From: a virus | IMG/VR virus record: IMGVR_UViG_3300035228_001133 | Coordinates: 1-64,000 of that record | Reading direction: 5' to 3' (one strand) | Length of the DNA stretch: 64,000 bases | The notes under the pieces: model-generated | The model's database searches: none | What the model was told of the DNA's origin: nothing | The model's input: only the letters and a program-made list of their open reading frames with translations | Position numbers and translations under genes: made by a program | Shown here: positions 34,189 through 40,651 of the stretch, in pieces | Numbering within the stretch: the stretch's first letter is position 1 | Layout of the letters: each line of letters starts with the position of its first letter

Positions 34189-34862
34189 CTGATTACTTAG
34201 TAAATTTAAATAGTCCTGGATCATATTCAGTTGGAGTTGACTACGAAATTCCATCGAAGTCAACTCAGAACACCAATTTAATCATTGATGACATTAATGG
34301 TCAGTTCAATGGTATTGGCGTTACTTTCGCATTAAGTAGTAGTGGCGATACATATAATCCATTAAATGACCAACAACTGATTGTTTGTAAAAACAATTTG
34401 GTTATGGAACCAGGAGAAGATTTCACCATTGCTGGTGATCAACTTATTTTCTCAGTTGCACCAGTTGTTGGTGATGATGTGTTCATCATTGCTCTTGCAA
34501 CTACTGCTGATCTAACAAGATCTGTTAATTTTGTTATTGACAGTGGATCTCAGGATATCTCCCCAGGAAGCAAAGGCAAAGTAACTGTAGATGTTTCTGG
34601 AACGATCGAATCAATCAAAATATTGAGTGATCAAACAGGAGATATTGTTGTAGAAGTATCTAAATCTAACTTCCAAGATTTTCCCACATTTACGACAATC
34701 ACTGACAATCAACGAGTCCAACTACAATCTCAAAACAAGTACATTGATGATGTACTAAATAATTGGGATAGGACGATCGTTGCTGGTGATATATTAGATT
34801 TTTCGGTAGTCAGCTCAACAAACATGCGAAGGTTGCTGATCTCTTTAAAATTAAAATTATAA
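34185..34862 (+). CDS. Probable virion structural protein
   Basis: 'IDDI..QFNG...TF.L' module shared with the gp7-like proteins; ATGA coupling. Confidence 0.7.
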   Translation: MTDYLVNLNSPGSYSVGVDYEIPSKSTQNTNLIIDDINGQFNGIGVTFALSSSGDTYNPLNDQQLIVCKNNLVMEPGEDFTIAGDQLIFSVAPVVGDDVFIIALATTADLTRSVNFVIDSGSQDISPGSKGKVTVDVSGTIESIKILSDQTGDIVVEVSKSNFQDFPTFTTITDNQRVQLQSQNKYIDDVLNNWDRTIVAGDILDFSVVSSTNMRRLLISLKLKL

Positions 34863-34908: not shown

Positions 34909-35916
34909 ATGGCATTACTAGTTCCCAATATTGGTGAAATTGAGTCTCTCCGTTATCTGATTGCTCAGAATAACTTTGTTGCAGACTTGGAGGATACTTC
35001 ACCAAGAAATCTCGTTCTTAAATTATTTACGAGTAACACCACCCCTGCTGAGGGTGATGTTCCTTCCCAGACTGCATATTTTGAACCATATATTGACGGA
35101 AACGTTAATGGTTACGGAACTACTGCAAATACTGGTTACCCCGTCTGCGTCGATAATAGAATCGATCAAGACTACACCGCACAGTACGGTGTTCTTCTAA
35201 ACGGATCTCGCTGGGTTATTAAGAACGTTGGTAGTGGTACAACCGCAACCTATCCCGAACAGACTTTCACCTTTACTGGACCTGCTGGTAATATCTACGG
35301 TTATTATGTAACCAGAGCAAACAACATGCCTGTATCCGTACAGGGTGTTAACCACGCAGCTAGTGTGGGTATCGGAACAACCGTCACCAAGGGTAACAAC
35401 ACTGATCCATGTATTGGAGTTGTTGGTAATAGATTCTTTGTTGTTGACCCACAGGTCTCCATCAACGATCTAACTCTTGGACAGTATGTTGCTGGTAACG
35501 CAGGTGTCCAAACTGGTACGAGAATTATTGGTCTTGACCGAGCCTTGCAAGTTGTCTATCTAGACAAACCACTGATTGATAACATTCAGGTTGCAACTGA
35601 TCCATCGGTTACCTTTAGTTTCGGTAAGATTGCTATTGTCAATCACGGTCTTCAGCGAGGAGATATCCTTTACGTTGCTGCTGGTTCAGGTAACACGACT
35701 CTTGAGTCCAATGTTTACACGGTCTTTGATTCACCAAACGCTGATGAGTTTGTAACTACACCTTCTCTGACTGCAACATCTAACGGTGTACTTGGTCTCA
35801 ATACCGCTACTCTCTACTCCAGCATCATGTACGCTGAGAGATTCACGAATGGTCCATACAACATTCAGAACAACGGTGACCAAATTAAAATCACCCTGAA
35901 CGTCGCACTTGACTGA
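34909..35916 (+). CDS. Virion structural protein, probably abundant
   Basis: GAGGAG RBS, own late promoter and terminator; 'ATYPEQTFTF...IYGYYV', 'AERF..GPY.I.NNGD.IKIT'. Confidence 0.8.
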   Translation: MALLVPNIGEIESLRYLIAQNNFVADLEDTSPRNLVLKLFTSNTTPAEGDVPSQTAYFEPYIDGNVNGYGTTANTGYPVCVDNRIDQDYTAQYGVLLNGSRWVIKNVGSGTTATYPEQTFTFTGPAGNIYGYYVTRANNMPVSVQGVNHAASVGIGTTVTKGNNTDPCIGVVGNRFFVVDPQVSINDLTLGQYVAGNAGVQTGTRIIGLDRALQVVYLDKPLIDNIQVATDPSVTFSFGKIAIVNHGLQRGDILYVAAGSGNTTLESNVYTVFDSPNADEFVTTPSLTATSNGVLGLNTATLYSSIMYAERFTNGPYNIQNNGDQIKITLNVALD

Positions 35917-35947: not shown

Positions 35948-35982
35948 GGGGATTGCTTTATTATCAAGGCAGTCCCCTTTTT
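35948..35982 (+). terminator. Rho-independent terminator
   Basis: GGGGATTGCTT-loop-AGGCAGTCCCC followed by TTTTT. Confidence 0.85.
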
Positions 35983-36005: not shown

Positions 36006-39000
36006 ATGGCCGTTTATGTCTACGATACCAATAAGGTAGATATATTCGTTTCGGAAGATGAGGGTTTGGTAACCACTTCCGTAACGAGTACGGCTGACTA
36101 TGGCAACATTTCAGACACTGCTGACGATGATCGCGGTGCAGATAATTTCAATCCTTGGTATTTTGGATTAATTACAGACCTAGCGGATGTCTTGCCATTT
36201 GGTAAGTTTGATGTTGGTGGAAACGCATTACCACTAAATTCTCCAGCTATTCCTGGTTCTGGACTATTCCGCATAGAAGATATTGCAGAAGTATCGTATG
36301 TAACCCCCTGGAGAGGGTCTGGAAGCCTCTTTGAGATCGGTGGAGGTCTGGAACGACTTGTCATCCCAGACTTGGGTGCCGCAGGACCATCTCCGTCCAT
36401 ATACGGACAAGCAGAAGAATCGAATACATTTGTTACAGTCGGATCTGGCATACTCGCTCAACTTTCTGATGAAGGAGCGACAGACAAGTTTAACAGATAT
36501 CCCTGGGACGCTACAGGTACTCTTACCCTCAGTGGATATAACGGCACAATATTTCCAGACGACTTTATTGCGGTCATTAAAAATGTCGCAAAGGTTAAGG
36601 GCAAGGCTCAAGATCGCGTTATTTATGACTACCGTCTGGATCCAGACACCAAGTTCGATACTGAAAACTGTGGATTCGTATTCGACACATCGGGTGGCAA
36701 GTTCTCCGATGCTGATGATCTAACCTTTGACAGAATCATCACTACCAATAAGGATAGGTCCTTTAGTGATGATGATCAACTTGAATATGAGAATTTCGGT
36801 GATATTACCGCAAGTATTCAACAGATTGAAGATCGCGGAATCATTGAGAGAAAACTCGGTGGTGGACTGTTCATGCACGATTACCAGGCAACTGGTATCA
36901 GTGCATCAGAATCTATTCCATTCGCATATTTTGGTACTGGATCTCTATTTGCACTTGGAGAACTCGATCCAGACAAAGATGTCGATCAGGTATTTGGATA
37001 CGCAGGTTCTGGTGGATTCAATGCTACTGGAGAGAACTTCTTCAGTCAGGCTCCACAAAGCACAATATTCGGTCTCGAAGGAGAAATTTCCTTCAATGGA
37101 TCTGGTGTCGAAAGATTTGTTCCTGCAACTGTTGATAATACAGTACTCTTCAATCAAGTTGGTTCTGCTAACGATAAGATTATTTGGCAGGCTGGGGAAC
37201 GTAAGATCACCATCAGACCAATTGGATTTGGATCTGTACTTCTTTCTGATACTCCACCTACATCTACAGCAACTCTGGTTGTATCTGGTGCAGCAACGGA
37301 TCTCGAAAGAACATTTGCTGATGGCAATGTAAACCTCTTTGATATTAGTGGAGATGCCGGCAACCCATTAGATTCCAGATTTACACCACACTTTAGATCT
37401 GCAAAAGGAGATATTGTCCTCCCAGATGAAGATTGGGGTCTTATTACAAACTCGGCAACCGAGTTTGAAGATTGGGGATATATCCGAGAAGTTGCAACCA
37501 CTTCTCTTGTATTTGGAGATATTCTTTCTCCATTCAATTACATTCAGATTGGTGGTCAACATTATCCAAGTACAGATACATTCTCTGTTGGGGAGTCTTC
37601 GCTCACCAAACAGACACTTGGATTTACTGGAATTGCAACATTCAGGATTTCCGAAGATTCCAGTCTGGAAAGAACGTTCGGATACGAATCGTCTGGTATT
37701 ACTGGTATTGCCACCTACAAGGCTGGTATCAACATCTTTGGTTACAACTGGTTCAGTCAGGCTCCACAAAGTACAGTATTCGGTCTCGAAGGTGAACTTA
37801 CTCTTAGTGGTTCTGGGAATGAGTCTATTACTCCGTTCATTGAACCTCAAGGAACTGATGGAAACTTTACTTTCCTATCTGGTCTTGCAGAATCAAGATC
37901 AGTTAGTCCCGATCCAACGGGTGATGTATATGTTGGCGGAACTGCAGGTATTGTATTCAGTCCCAATATTACTGGTGTTGGTGTTGCCACACTTCGTACA
38001 GGTAGAGAAGAGTTCCAGACATATCTCAGAATCATTGATCCTGATATGGATCTTGTTCTCACCACAATTGGTGGTGGACTTGTTAATGAGGACTTCGTTA
38101 AGAGTTACAACGAATCTTCAATCTACTATGGTCCTCAAGATGAAGATTATGGAAATATCCTCAATGCAGCTGCATATGGGATGGGTCTCAACTTCTCTGG
38201 TGCTGCATCTGAAGTTGAAACCTATGATAATGAGACGAATACTTATGACCAAGATGTACTCTTCAGTAGCAACGGTCTAACTTATGACCAGAGCACTGGC
38301 GGAACAAGTATTCTTCCAAGTTTCGACAAAACAGCATCGTTCCCTGTCAACTTTGGAACTACTGTCGTATCTGAAGATCTTGGTACTCTCACCGAAGGAT
38401 CTCCAATTCCAGGTGGTCCAGCATATGATCAATACCTATATCCAAATTACACTGGATTCATTGATCAGGATATCAACCAAGGTTACGATGATTTTGGATT
38501 CATCAATGCTACTACCGATTCTCTAACCAGAGTACCTTATGGTCAGGTTGATATTGAGCAACCTCCAACTCTTACGGTCACCAGATTTATTCCTCAATGG
38601 AATGGTTCTGGTACTATTATTCCTTCTGGTACTGCGGAAGAGAGATTTATTACCTCGGATGGCAATACCGTCCTATTCGACTTTATTGGTACTACTTCCC
38701 CAGAGAAGTTTATTGCTCAGACTCCAGAAGATACAATTCTCTTCACAATTTCTGGTGCAGCCGAAGACGAATCGGTCACCTTTGCTGAAGTTGGAATTGG
38801 AACTGCATATTTCTCTGGTATTGGAGTCGAGAGGGTCAGATTTGTCGAGATTGGAACTGGCATTCTTTCCTTCTCTGGTTCTGCAGTGGAAAGATCCTCC
38901 ATGGATCCTCCAGAAGGAACTTATCTACATGTATTCAGTGGAACAGATGTTCGACCTGGACTTTCCTTTGCTGTCGCGACAACAAAGGCAACTCAACGTC

Positions 39001-40607
39001 TGTTTGGAGAACTATATCATCCAGACATCGACTTCACTCCACATTATGGTATTGAGAGAAATATTGGTATCGAGACCGCATTTGCACTTGCGAGTGGTGG
39101 TGGTCTCAACGAAGATGGTACTGGTCCTGGTATTGTCACTACCAGATATCTTCCCGATTATAGAGGAGAGGGTGTTCTTACTCTTAGTGGTAAGGCTATT
39201 GGTCGTACCAATGCACCAATCTTTACTGATGGTACTATCTATATCCTCGGTATTCATACCGCGGCTCAGGGAATCAGTTCTGGGAGAGAGACTGGTCTTT
39301 CGGAAAGTTATTCTCCTGGAACAATCTTTGGTGGTCCTGGACAAGTCACCTTCACGGGTGTCTCCCCTGCTCGTCCAATTCAGGTATTTGGATATTATGG
39401 GGACGACAGAGATCCTGGAGCTGGAACGACTGGAGTCATTTCGATTACTCCTGCTCAGCAAGGAATCATCATCAAATCCACCAGCGATTATGTTGGTGTT
39501 GGAACTGCATACTTCTCTGGAGAATATTCCGATCTCGTTGCAACATTCAGAGAAATTGGAACGGGAGAACTCTTCAAATTCTCTGCTCTATATGAAAGAA
39601 GAACCTTCGATTATATTGGATCTGGATTACTCACTGCATCTGGAACAACAGATGCTCCAAGTTCTTTCCAGACTCCAGAAAGTACAGTTCTCTTTGCAGT
39701 TTCTGGATATTCGCAAGAACGTGTCTCTCTGGACAACGAAACGGGTGGAACGATTTCCATCTACAACACAGAAAGAGTTATTACTGGAATTACTCTTTCT
39801 ATCTCAACTGGAGGCACGTTCAATTTCTCCTCCAGTGGTGCAGAATCGATTGTTATTCCTTCGGACACAAATACCGCTCTCTTCGATATCGAAGGAATTG
39901 CCGATACCAGAGAAATTCAGGTCTACGGTTACTATGGAGATGATAGAGATCCTGGTACATCTGGAACTATCACAATTGTTGGTGAACTTACTCCCCCACA
40001 GATCGACTATACTCCCGCAGAGGTTGGATTTGGAGATCTTACTTTCGTTGGTAGTTCTATCATCAAGGTCGATCTCAAGATCGTCGGAAAAGGAACTCTT
40101 CCAATATCTGGTTCTGCAACAGAGAAATTTGTCAGTGGTGCAGGCGAAGATACGATTCTCTTCTCCATCGATGGAAATGCCGAAACGGCACTCAATCAAG
40201 TTTATGGATACTACGGAGACGACAAAGATCCAGGTACATCTGGAATTACTACAATTTCTGGTGTTGGTATTACAAAACCAATACAGGTATTTGGATATTA
40301 TGGAGACGACAAAGATCCTGGTACATCAGGAACATTTACATTCTCCAATACTCCTCTTGTTCACCCAGAAGTCGATTACACTCCACATTACACAGGCACG
40401 GGAGTTGTATACTTTACTGGAGGCGTTTCCGTCAAGAGGACTTTCCCAGAAGTTGTTGGTTCTGGTTCTCTCTTCGGATTTGGTACAAAAGACGAATCAT
40501 TTGCGAGAACAACATACGTCGGTATCGGTGTTGCCAACTTCTTCGGAGCCTCATTTACGGAAACAATTGCGTTTGAACCAGCTCGCGTATACGTTACTAT
40601 CATTTAA
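36006..40607 (+). CDS. Large acidic, Gly/Thr/Phe-rich repetitive protein (probable virion protein)
   Basis: 1533 aa; internal repeats QV(F/Y)GYYGDD(R/K)DPG x4, P..D(F/Y)TP x3, FSQAPQST.FGLEGE x2. Confidence 0.8.
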   Translation: MAVYVYDTNKVDIFVSEDEGLVTTSVTSTADYGNISDTADDDRGADNFNPWYFGLITDLADVLPFGKFDVGGNALPLNSPAIPGSGLFRIEDIAEVSYVTPWRGSGSLFEIGGGLERLVIPDLGAAGPSPSIYGQAEESNTFVTVGSGILAQLSDEGATDKFNRYPWDATGTLTLSGYNGTIFPDDFIAVIKNVAKVKGKAQDRVIYDYRLDPDTKFDTENCGFVFDTSGGKFSDADDLTFDRIITTNKDRSFSDDDQLEYENFGDITASIQQIEDRGIIERKLGGGLFMHDYQATGISASESIPFAYFGTGSLFALGELDPDKDVDQVFGYAGSGGFNATGENFFSQAPQSTIFGLEGEISFNGSGVERFVPATVDNTVLFNQVGSANDKIIWQAGERKITIRPIGFGSVLLSDTPPTSTATLVVSGAATDLERTFADGNVNLFDISGDAGNPLDSRFTPHFRSAKGDIVLPDEDWGLITNSATEFEDWGYIREVATTSLVFGDILSPFNYIQIGGQHYPSTDTFSVGESSLTKQTLGFTGIATFRISEDSSLERTFGYESSGITGIATYKAGINIFGYNWFSQAPQSTVFGLEGELTLSGSGNESITPFIEPQGTDGNFTFLSGLAESRSVSPDPTGDVYVGGTAGIVFSPNITGVGVATLRTGREEFQTYLRIIDPDMDLVLTTIGGGLVNEDFVKSYNESSIYYGPQDEDYGNILNAAAYGMGLNFSGAASEVETYDNETNTYDQDVLFSSNGLTYDQSTGGTSILPSFDKTASFPVNFGTTVVSEDLGTLTEGSPIPGGPAYDQYLYPNYTGFIDQDINQGYDDFGFINATTDSLTRVPYGQVDIEQPPTLTVTRFIPQWNGSGTIIPSGTAEERFITSDGNTVLFDFIGTTSPEKFIAQTPEDTILFTISGAAEDESVTFAEVGIGTAYFSGIGVERVRFVEIGTGILSFSGSAVERSSMDPPEGTYLHVFSGTDVRPGLSFAVATTKATQRLFGELYHPDIDFTPHYGIERNIGIETAFALASGGGLNEDGTGPGIVTTRYLPDYRGEGVLTLSGKAIGRTNAPIFTDGTIYILGIHTAAQGISSGRETGLSESYSPGTIFGGPGQVTFTGVSPARPIQVFGYYGDDRDPGAGTTGVISITPAQQGIIIKSTSDYVGVGTAYFSGEYSDLVATFREIGTGELFKFSALYERRTFDYIGSGLLTASGTTDAPSSFQTPESTVLFAVSGYSQERVSLDNETGGTISIYNTERVITGITLSISTGGTFNFSSSGAESIVIPSDTNTALFDIEGIADTREIQVYGYYGDDRDPGTSGTITIVGELTPPQIDYTPAEVGFGDLTFVGSSIIKVDLKIVGKGTLPISGSATEKFVSGAGEDTILFSIDGNAETALNQVYGYYGDDKDPGTSGITTISGVGITKPIQVFGYYGDDKDPGTSGTFTFSNTPLVHPEVDYTPHYTGTGVVYFTGGVSVKRTFPEVVGSGSLFGFGTKDESFARTTYVGIGVANFFGASFTETIAFEPARVYVTII
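37041..37792 (+). repeat. 41-bp direct repeat pair (37041-37081 and 37752-37792), 2 mismatches
   Basis: TTCAGTCAGGCTCCACAAAG[C/T]ACA[A/G]TATTCGGTCTCGAAGG. Confidence 0.9.
39381..40332 (+). repeat. Four GYYGDD(R/K)DPG repeats (about 39381, 39918, 40197, 40284)
   Basis: CAGGTATTTGGATATTATGG identical at 39381 and 40284; GGAGACGACAAAGATCC identical at 40215 and 40302. Confidence 0.9.
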
Positions 40608-40610
40608 CTT

Positions 40611-40618
40611 TATAAATA
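40611..40618 (+). promoter_or_regulatory. T4-type late promoter
   Basis: TATAAATA. Confidence 0.8.
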
Positions 40619-40651
40619 AATCAGAAGCATACCTTTCATGAGTTCTGAATC

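Follow-up and report, generated by a model that had tools for sequence, protein, structure and literature searches.

Why should a gene that is conserved in one reading frame be almost free of stop triplets in both of the others? The question is raised by an open reading frame (ORF) of 1533 amino acids at positions 36006 to 40607, plus strand, in a stretch of viral DNA of 64,000 nucleotides (positions 1 to 64,000 of IMG/VR record IMGVR_UViG_3300035228_001133; hereafter the window). We call this ORF, taken from the list of ORFs in the window, the main gene. Its frame 0 is the conserved frame, as the amino acid identity between orthologs is 0.43–0.51 in frame 0 versus 0.25–0.33 in the off-frames, and its product is, judged by sequence comparisons, a tail-fibre-like structural protein of unassigned family from marine cyanophages. 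An original prediction had reported that stop triplets are scarce in both off-frames of the 3′ 2 kb of this gene, and had proposed that ribosomes have to survive out of frame on its mRNA. We find that the depletion concerns exactly the three stop triplets, is restricted to the sense strand and to one gene family, and is achieved by synonymous, context-dependent codon choice. The explanation that we favour, with confidence about evenly balanced, is purifying selection on UAA, UAG and UGA in both unused sense frames, which would act against out-of-frame termination, the off-frame products having no function.

Off-frame stop triplets in the main gene

Our recount of positions 38539–40604 gave exactly the numbers of the original prediction: 14 stop triplets (nine TGA, four TAG and one TAA), 14 of 14 in frame +2 and none in frame +1. 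The empty frame forms a +1 ORF of 700 codons (38539–40641, plus strand) that extends 34 nt beyond the main stop codon and whose Leu-rich translation shows no conservation and belongs to no family. Over the 4.3 kb from 36331 to 40641 (plus strand), frame +1 is interrupted by the predicted five stops, at 36721, 37330, 37369, 38278 and 38524. The whole gene carries 13 stops in frame +1 and 83 in frame +2. Eight of the 13 lie in the first 100 codons (36006–36305, plus strand), where the +1 density is normal or raised, and none lies beyond 38524. Three stretches of the plus strand (39230–39592, 39596–39940 and 40055–40573) are stop-free in every sense frame, as had been claimed and as follows from the positions of the +2 stops that bound them (39227, 39593, 39941, 39944, 39983, 40052 and 40574). 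A neighbouring sample of 300 nt (35041–35340) contains 12 stops, again the number first reported.

The earlier description of codon choice in the 3′ 2 kb was equally accurate. Only one of 27 Lys/Asn codons follows a T-ending codon, and every NTA codon precedes a pyrimidine (12 of 12, where about 13 had been estimated). Minus-strand stop triplets (99) and the sense-strand triplets TAT, TAC and TGG (55, 51 and 76, respectively) remain common. When a frameshift was simulated at a random codon among the last 690, the median distance read before a stop was 346 codons in frame +1 and 46 codons in frame +2; the same simulation with three other long genes gave medians of 12–18 and 4–6 codons.

The deficit exceeds synonymous expectation and is specific to stop triplets

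As a null model, synonymous codons were shuffled 1000 times within the gene, which keeps both the protein and the codon counts. For the last 689 codons (38538–40604, plus strand) the shuffled sequences held 7.6 ± 1.7 stops in frame +1 and 53.2 ± 4.9 in frame +2, versus 0 and 14 observed, and none of the 1000 shuffles reached counts as low as these. The expected length of the longest +1 ORF is about 226 codons; 700 were observed, a length that no shuffle attained. For the whole gene, 13 stops were observed versus 32.8 expected in frame +1 (z −6.5) and 83 versus 145 in frame +2 (z −8.8). The other 38 ORFs of the window, four of which encode 1477–2982 amino acids, all have |z| of at most 2.4. A stricter null model also keeps all codon-junction dinucleotides, whereby frame +1 is fixed by construction. 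Under this model frame +2 still held 14 stops versus 50.2 expected in the last 2 kb of the gene (z −8.8), and the ratio was 0.19 (z −34.6) for the pooled last 700 codons of 14 orthologs. Passive compositional paucity, as from high GC content or RNY codons, was considered and rejected, since the GC content is 43% and neither plain, local nor junction-preserving shuffles reproduce the deficit. The antisense frames are normal, with observed/expected stops of 1.00, 1.07 and 0.89.

The avoided set is precisely that of the stop triplets. In 15 pooled orthologs the observed/expected ratios in frames +1/+2 are 0.40/0.54 for TAA, 0.26/0.51 for TAG and 0.10/0.59 for TGA, and are 2.44/0.95 for TAT, 1.63/1.05 for TAC and 1.61/1.48 for TGG; TGT and TGC are neutral or enriched. 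Control genes (90 kb of flanking genes) give 1.15/0.97, 0.68/0.83 and 1.27/1.13 for TAA, TAG and TGA. In the fully depleted zone, T is the third base in 5% of pyrimidine-ending codons before Ser-AGY versus 68% before Ser-TCN, in 4% before Arg-AGR versus 67% before Arg-CGN, and in 0–7% before Asn, Lys, Asp and Glu codons. It makes up 57–89% in the remaining contexts, except before Phe-TTY (16%), where its low share reflects an avoidance of TTT runs that control genes have in common. In the same stop-creating contexts the control genes use T in 66–79% of cases. Because the T share differs between the two kinds of Ser codon and between the two kinds of Arg codon, the rule of codon choice follows nucleotides and not amino acids: it is to avoid creating TAA, TAG or TGA. 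The avoidance is thus synonymous and dependent on context, as first described, with the choice of T or C set by the nucleotides of the next codon.

A context bias of another kind is genome-wide, with TTT, AGC and GCT avoided over codon junctions in main and control genes alike. Across all structural genes tested, in the window and in loci L003 to L068, T runs occur at 0.29 and X_XXY_YYZ heptamers at 0.17 of the level in synonymous shuffles. Junction-spanning AGC and GCT occur at 0.27–0.70 in these genes, a bias distinct from the stop effect.

Orthologs share the depletion

About 60 orthologs show the same depletion, down to 40% protein identity and with synonymous sites saturated. The original prediction had named synonymous shuffling and a comparison of orthologs as ways to refute it, and it withstood the two. 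The relatives include Synechococcus phages Sf-FS3, S-SSM7 and S-SSM6a, with a distant one in S-SCSM2R, and 67 further loci lie on uncultured viral contigs. Every ortholog of testable length is strongly depleted (z −4 to −11), and short fragments show a weaker trend. The longest open frames reach 1270 codons in frame +1 and 714 in frame +2; frame +1 is open for 540–1270 codons in all orthologs and for 1000–1270 in many of them. Flanking genes on the ortholog contigs (approximately 340, 1200 and 1480 amino acids) have normal numbers of off-frame stops, and in the complete 233-kb genome of S-SSM7 the main-gene locus alone stands out from the 151 ORFs of at least 150 amino acids. Synonymous divergence (dS) between clades is 1.4–1.8, a level of saturation which argues that the stop-depleted state is maintained and has been renewed independently in the lineages, not passively inherited. 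The clades with ATG starts are depleted as strongly as those with TTG starts, and the clade of the window itself is among the less strict ones. Depletion is weaker in the distant homologs gp111 of S-SCSM2R (29% identity) and L069 (26%), where it is confined to the C-terminal modules that are homologous.

To follow the pattern along the gene, 34 non-redundant orthologs (less than 95% mutual identity) were aligned and shuffled within blocks of 200 columns. Frame +1 begins with an excess of stops (columns 0–100, 104 observed versus 80 expected, a ratio of 1.30 from raw pooled counts). Its ratio is 0.36–1.0 up to column 500 and 0.05–0.43 in columns 500–1300, and columns 1300–1800 hold no stop at all versus 216 expected. 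Frame +2 is a mosaic that sits at conserved positions in the 34 orthologs. Its density is normal in columns 200–500 and 830–1125 and in a small zone at 1346–1416; it is depleted in columns 720–830 and 1125–1346, and nearly empty in 1416–1838 (columns 1500–1800, 30 observed versus 606 expected). The zones of normal +2 density coincide with indel-rich parts of the alignment, and the stop-free zones with parts of conserved length. Both open frames end within about 40 codons of the main stop. That the +1 stop might be tied to the start codon of the next gene was considered and rejected, as frame +1 ends at no fixed place but anywhere between −11 and +67 nt, counted from the main stop.

The +1 stop at 38278 (alignment column 1021) is an observation in its own right. 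It arises from Leu-CTA followed by Thr-ACN, is common to many otherwise divergent clades, and is among the very few recurrent breaks of the +1 frame.

Tests of dual coding, frameshifting and locus variation

A dual-coding region, one of the reasons offered in the original prediction, was rejected on the grounds of normal synonymous rates and the lack of a conserved off-frame peptide or start. In 10 genome pairs, dS of the main gene, including its last third, lies among or above that of the flanking genes with no consistent reduction, and the same-codon excess at identical residues is 1.21–1.26 in all four regions (pairs of less than 60% identity). Off-frame amino acid identity is 0.29–0.33 versus 0.23–0.25 after independent synonymous shuffling and is similar inside and outside the open zones; this small excess should be the expected product of shared stop avoidance. 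The first ATG of the +1 stretch falls in scattered alignment columns across relatives, and most +2 open stretches are without any ATG, GTG or TTG since frame 0 has hardly any Cys or Trp codons. The places at which the +1 ORF is interrupted differ between lineages, with five breaks in the window and 18 in locus L061. Its translation has no match in Pfam or PHROGs and, among 5.8 billion proteins, matches two shadow gene calls only. These comparisons indicate that the off-frame peptides themselves are not under selection.

Programmed or iterative frameshifting, also offered originally, is not supported either. Programmed −1 frameshifting was rejected, as there is neither a conserved slippery heptamer nor a stimulatory RNA. 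The 34 orthologs contain nine X_XXY_YYZ heptamers, none of them shared past the first few codons, which amounts to 0.26 per gene versus 3.5 expected; the ratio is 0.11 versus 0.17 in controls, a depletion of about nine-fold. No peak of synonymous conservation stands out along the gene (maximum 2.0, median 1.26), and no Rfam match was obtained at E ≤ 1. For a +1 frameshift site of the prfB type, the main gene has no in-frame stop and no conserved nucleotide element, though diffuse shifting at hungry codons is conceivable on the evidence of the sequence. The proposed hopping between internal repeats was rejected as well, since all direct-repeat spacings checked in the main gene are multiples of three and the off-frame translations do not resemble the frame-0 protein: they match frame 0 neither of other orthologs nor of their own gene (BLAST, E ≤ 1e-3; hidden Markov model profile). 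That the gene is the target of a diversity-generating retroelement was rejected too: its direct repeats are in-frame protein repeats, and the annotation of the complete S-SSM7 genome lists no reverse transcriptase, although no dedicated search for one was run.

A phase-variable locus was rejected because the gene lacks simple-sequence tracts and its length variants are multiples of three. Homopolymer runs do not exceed C5, A6 and T6, and T runs are strongly avoided. Among pairwise indels, 366 of 412 are multiples of three and the others form compensating pairs at short distance, as alignment noise typically does. Contigs of population DNA from four sequencing runs show substitutions, one 5-nt compensated indel pair and one in-frame insertion of 495 nt. 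This insertion, at 36825/36826 (run X16), matches longer orthologs of about 1700 amino acids.

The gene, its product and its neighbourhood

The locus is a baseplate and fibre module, in which tail and tail-fibre PHROGs adjoin the main gene. Upstream lie genes for a virion structural protein and for a 335-amino-acid protein of unknown function; downstream are a 152-amino-acid tail protein (Mtd-N-terminal-like in the annotation of one record) and a tail fibre of 1477 amino acids. The main protein is composed of short Gly/Ser/Thr-rich repeats with recurring YGYYGDD(K/R)DPGTSG motifs. It has no match in Pfam, a single match in PHROGs (phrog_11522, function unknown), matches at chance level only in a sequence search of the PDB, and no usable match in a search of a protein atlas. 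AlphaFold2 monomer predictions with ortholog alignments gave no confident model for the C-terminal 689 amino acids (predicted local distance difference test score, pLDDT, 26.6) or for the middle segment rich in +2 stops (pLDDT 36.9). The stop-free zones might conceivably encode a fibrous shaft and the stop-rich ones globular domains. Non-synonymous divergence (dN) of the gene is two to eight times that of the flanking structural genes at equal dS, and the fast-evolving protein is a candidate host-interaction component.

A T4-type late-promoter box of the next gene, TATAAATA, lies just 3′ of the main stop codon (40611–40618, plus strand) and delimits the stop-free zone on its 3′ side. The box is kept at this place in all orthologs. 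The window has five copies of it, five of five on the plus strand directly 5′ of gene starts, and one of these is at 34858; none lies 5′ of the main gene. A 12-bp hairpin followed by a T run (35948–35977, plus strand) ends 28 nt 5′ of the start codon; it either terminates the upstream gene or forms a 5′ stem-loop, and a comparable hairpin and T run precede the start in orthologs. Because the main gene has a hairpin and T run upstream and no box of its own, its expression may start from the box at 34858 and rely on read-through of the terminator.

In many orthologs the gene starts with TTG ahead of a conserved N-terminus, T-V-F/Y-V/T-Y-D-N-T-K (position 36006 in the window; also L016, L021, L013, L002:3056 and others). 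The GenBank start of gene 110 of S-SSM7 is a GTG about 25 codons downstream, so that the annotated gene is probably too short. Met is scarce in the main gene and likewise in all neighbouring structural genes. In-frame ATG, GTG and TTG together are 2.5–5 times rarer in the main gene than in most neighbouring structural genes; as a special feature in its own right this scarcity was rejected, as it is not separable from the avoidance of TGA in frame +1.

Interpretation

The ribosome is the only known reader of stop triplets that is specific for both phase and strand, which argues that out-of-frame termination inside this gene is costly. Out-of-frame ribosomes would arise by frameshift errors or by starts out of frame. 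The cost that we prefer is that C-terminally truncated fibre chains might still assemble and poison virions, while a slipped ribosome that read on would add a long hydrophobic tail to a chain likelier to be discarded. A second possible cost would be that a long mRNA with weak initiation is left uncovered by ribosomes. Taken singly within the explanation that we favour, each of these two rationales is doubtful at best. Because the first 100 codons keep their +1 stops, very early abortion seems to be tolerated, and the idea of poisonous subunits fits with this tolerance, or even enrichment, of early +1 stops and with off-frame peptides that are free of constraint. In the main gene the avoidance of T runs and −1 slippery heptamers is somewhat stronger than in its neighbours, which suggests that frame errors matter and apparently exert genuine selection on these phages. 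The claim of the original prediction that out-of-frame ribosomes matter stands in so far as selection on off-frame stops is concerned, although most of the mechanisms it named do not. Its idea of protecting a slip-prone mRNA is still tenable as protection, but the gene is depleted in slippery motifs and not rich in them.

Several points weigh against selection on out-of-frame termination. That ribosomes read the off-frames of the main gene is itself a presumption. The neighbouring fibre gene of 1477 amino acids and the baseplate genes of 2500–3000 amino acids are neutral, so a cost peculiar to one gene is unaccounted for. Because frame +2 is a mosaic with zones of normal density, the idea of carrying slipped ribosomes to the end of the gene fails for that frame: a ribosome shifted by −1 in the first stop-free zone would meet stops almost at once, and each +2 stop seems to carry a local cost of an unnamed kind. 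A frameshifted chain of full length would serve the virion no better than a truncated one, if quality control does not distinguish between the two. Finally, an excess of off-frame stops, and not a deficit, is what general theory and data favour (PMC5909447; bioRxiv 10.1101/2025.10.02.679949).

It is conceivable, though we think it doubtful, that the gene is instead robust to changes of frame. Ribosomes would then shift appreciably without classical slippery sites, driven for example by the nascent fibre chain or by the codon supply late in infection, and all three frames would be safely readable. Hidden stops would have been removed so that such excursions avoid release, or trans-frame chains would be made on purpose. 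Such a gene would, if this is true, be the first example of its kind. An alternative that we rate as unlikely places the cost on the mRNA: internal release would uncover the RNA or trigger its cleavage, and a long transcript, with its weak TTG start and its reliance on read-through of a terminator, would be stabilized by the removal of stops. Hidden stops halt out-of-frame translation and destabilize mRNAs in fungi and human cells, and synonymous removal of hidden stops stabilizes the frq mRNA (bioRxiv 10.64898/2026.01.14.699446). The TTG start behind a hairpin in many orthologs and the lack of an own late-promoter box would suit such a cost. However, the eukaryotic precedent relies on nonsense-mediated mRNA decay (NMD), which bacteria are not known to possess; moreover, other long genes show no depletion, the +2 mosaic is interrupted before it reaches the 3′ end, and clades with ATG starts are equally depleted.

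We regard it as quite unlikely that the open frames make products, either as an overlapping gene in frame +1 or as trans-frame fusions. The fusions would come from ribosomes that shift often and at many sites, with the nascent chain or hungry codons as possible inducers, and products of either kind would yield a family of fibre variants. The almost absolute openness of frame +1 over its 540–1270 codons in all orthologs, with many ATG, GTG and TTG codons, speaks for products, as does the likeness of this signature to the one that serves to detect overlapping genes (PMC6188560). Abrahams and Hurst, furthermore, expect stop avoidance where programmed shifts bring frames into use downstream of the shift site (PMC5909447). 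Nevertheless, dS is no lower than in flanking genes even in the last third, the same-codon excess is uniform at 1.21–1.26, and off-frame identity (0.29–0.33 versus a null of 0.23–0.25) differs little between the inside and the outside of the open zones. Conserved starts are lacking, with most +2 stretches startless, the +1 ORF is broken lineage by lineage (five times in the window, 18 times in L061), heptamers are depleted (0.11), and there is no synonymous peak, no Pfam or PHROGs match and no protein hit beyond the shadow calls. An explanation without translational meaning, by which the depletion would be a side effect of motif avoidance, RNA structure, mutation bias or inherited repeats, could draw on the genome-wide junction biases in TTT, AGC and GCT and on the short repeats of the protein. 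We consider it very unlikely, as the avoided set is exactly TAA, TAG and TGA, with TAT, TAC, TGG, TGT and TGC neutral or enriched; frames +1 and +2 differ in the same segments, the antisense strand is unaffected, and the deficit survives local and junction-preserving shuffles and persists at dS above 1 and at a GC content of only 43%. Evolvability is the most improbable of the explanations weighed here. By this account frameshift mutations or out-of-register recombination would yield new fibre C-termini for changes of host range, as has been proposed for PE_PGRS genes (PMC13328622) and for off-frame recombination (PMC5909447), and the gene does evolve at two to eight times the dN of its neighbours within a receptor-binding module. 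Yet no off-frame translation matches frame 0 of another ortholog (BLAST, E ≤ 1e-3, or profile); indels are multiples of three in 366 of 412 cases, with the remainder resembling alignment noise; the population variants with a change of length are only the 5-nt compensated pair and the in-frame 495-nt insertion; homopolymer and repeat tracts are absent; and the stop-free zones are conserved in length, the indel-rich parts being those with normal +2 density.

Relation to known systems and significance

The main-gene depletion fits no described mechanism among those tested. Codon-permutation and synonymous-mutation tests detect overlapping genes, according to Schlub, Buchmann and Holmes (2018; PMC6188560). 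Like the overlapping viral genes treated there, the main gene has an alternative ORF that exceeds shuffle expectation and is open in relatives; unlike them, it shows no synonymous constraint and no conserved alternative protein or start, both of its alternative frames are open simultaneously, and start codons are missing from most +2 stretches. Under the ambush hypothesis (Seligmann and Pollock 2004, cited after PMC5909447) off-frame stops are favoured. The likeness here lies in off-frame stops acting as selectable elements that decide the fate of slipped ribosomes and of mRNA, but in the body of the main gene the sign is reversed, in one gene and nearly absolutely, in a phage of bacteria. The original prediction had called the pattern the opposite of the ambush expectation, and the strong deficit agrees with that description.

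In the PE_PGRS genes of Mycobacterium tuberculosis, the paucity of off-frame stops is largely a passive result of high GC content (PMC13328622). Those genes resemble the main gene as surface or structural genes that are rich in repeats and poor in out-of-frame stops, and tolerance of frameshifts has been discussed for them; in contrast, the GC content here is 43%, and the deficit remains when protein, codon usage and dinucleotides are all kept constant in the shuffles. Programmed ribosomal frameshifting occurs in phage structural genes such as the tail chaperone G/GT and 10A/10B of phage T7. These are likewise structural genes with an alternative frame kept open, but the main gene has no slippery site or stimulator, and it has both frames open, over 400–1270 codons and not over a short stretch that follows a single site. 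In the searchable literature we found no described case of selected, near-total depletion in two frames of a single gene without dual coding, and full-text searches for off-frame stop depletion in phages returned nothing relevant.

Hidden stops are usually seen as weakly favoured or neutral, and the main gene family shows the reverse, with a signal close to the strongest that statistics on sequences can yield. For gene finders and overlap detectors it is a caution that a very long, conserved alternative ORF is not necessarily a gene, and the shuffle z-score can be applied to all phage genomes for further cases. The family offers a natural test case for the price that a cell or a virus pays for an out-of-frame ribosome, for a possible difference in the handling of truncated and frameshift-extended subunits, and for whether bacteria and their phages link off-frame termination to the fate of the mRNA, as eukaryotes appear to do.

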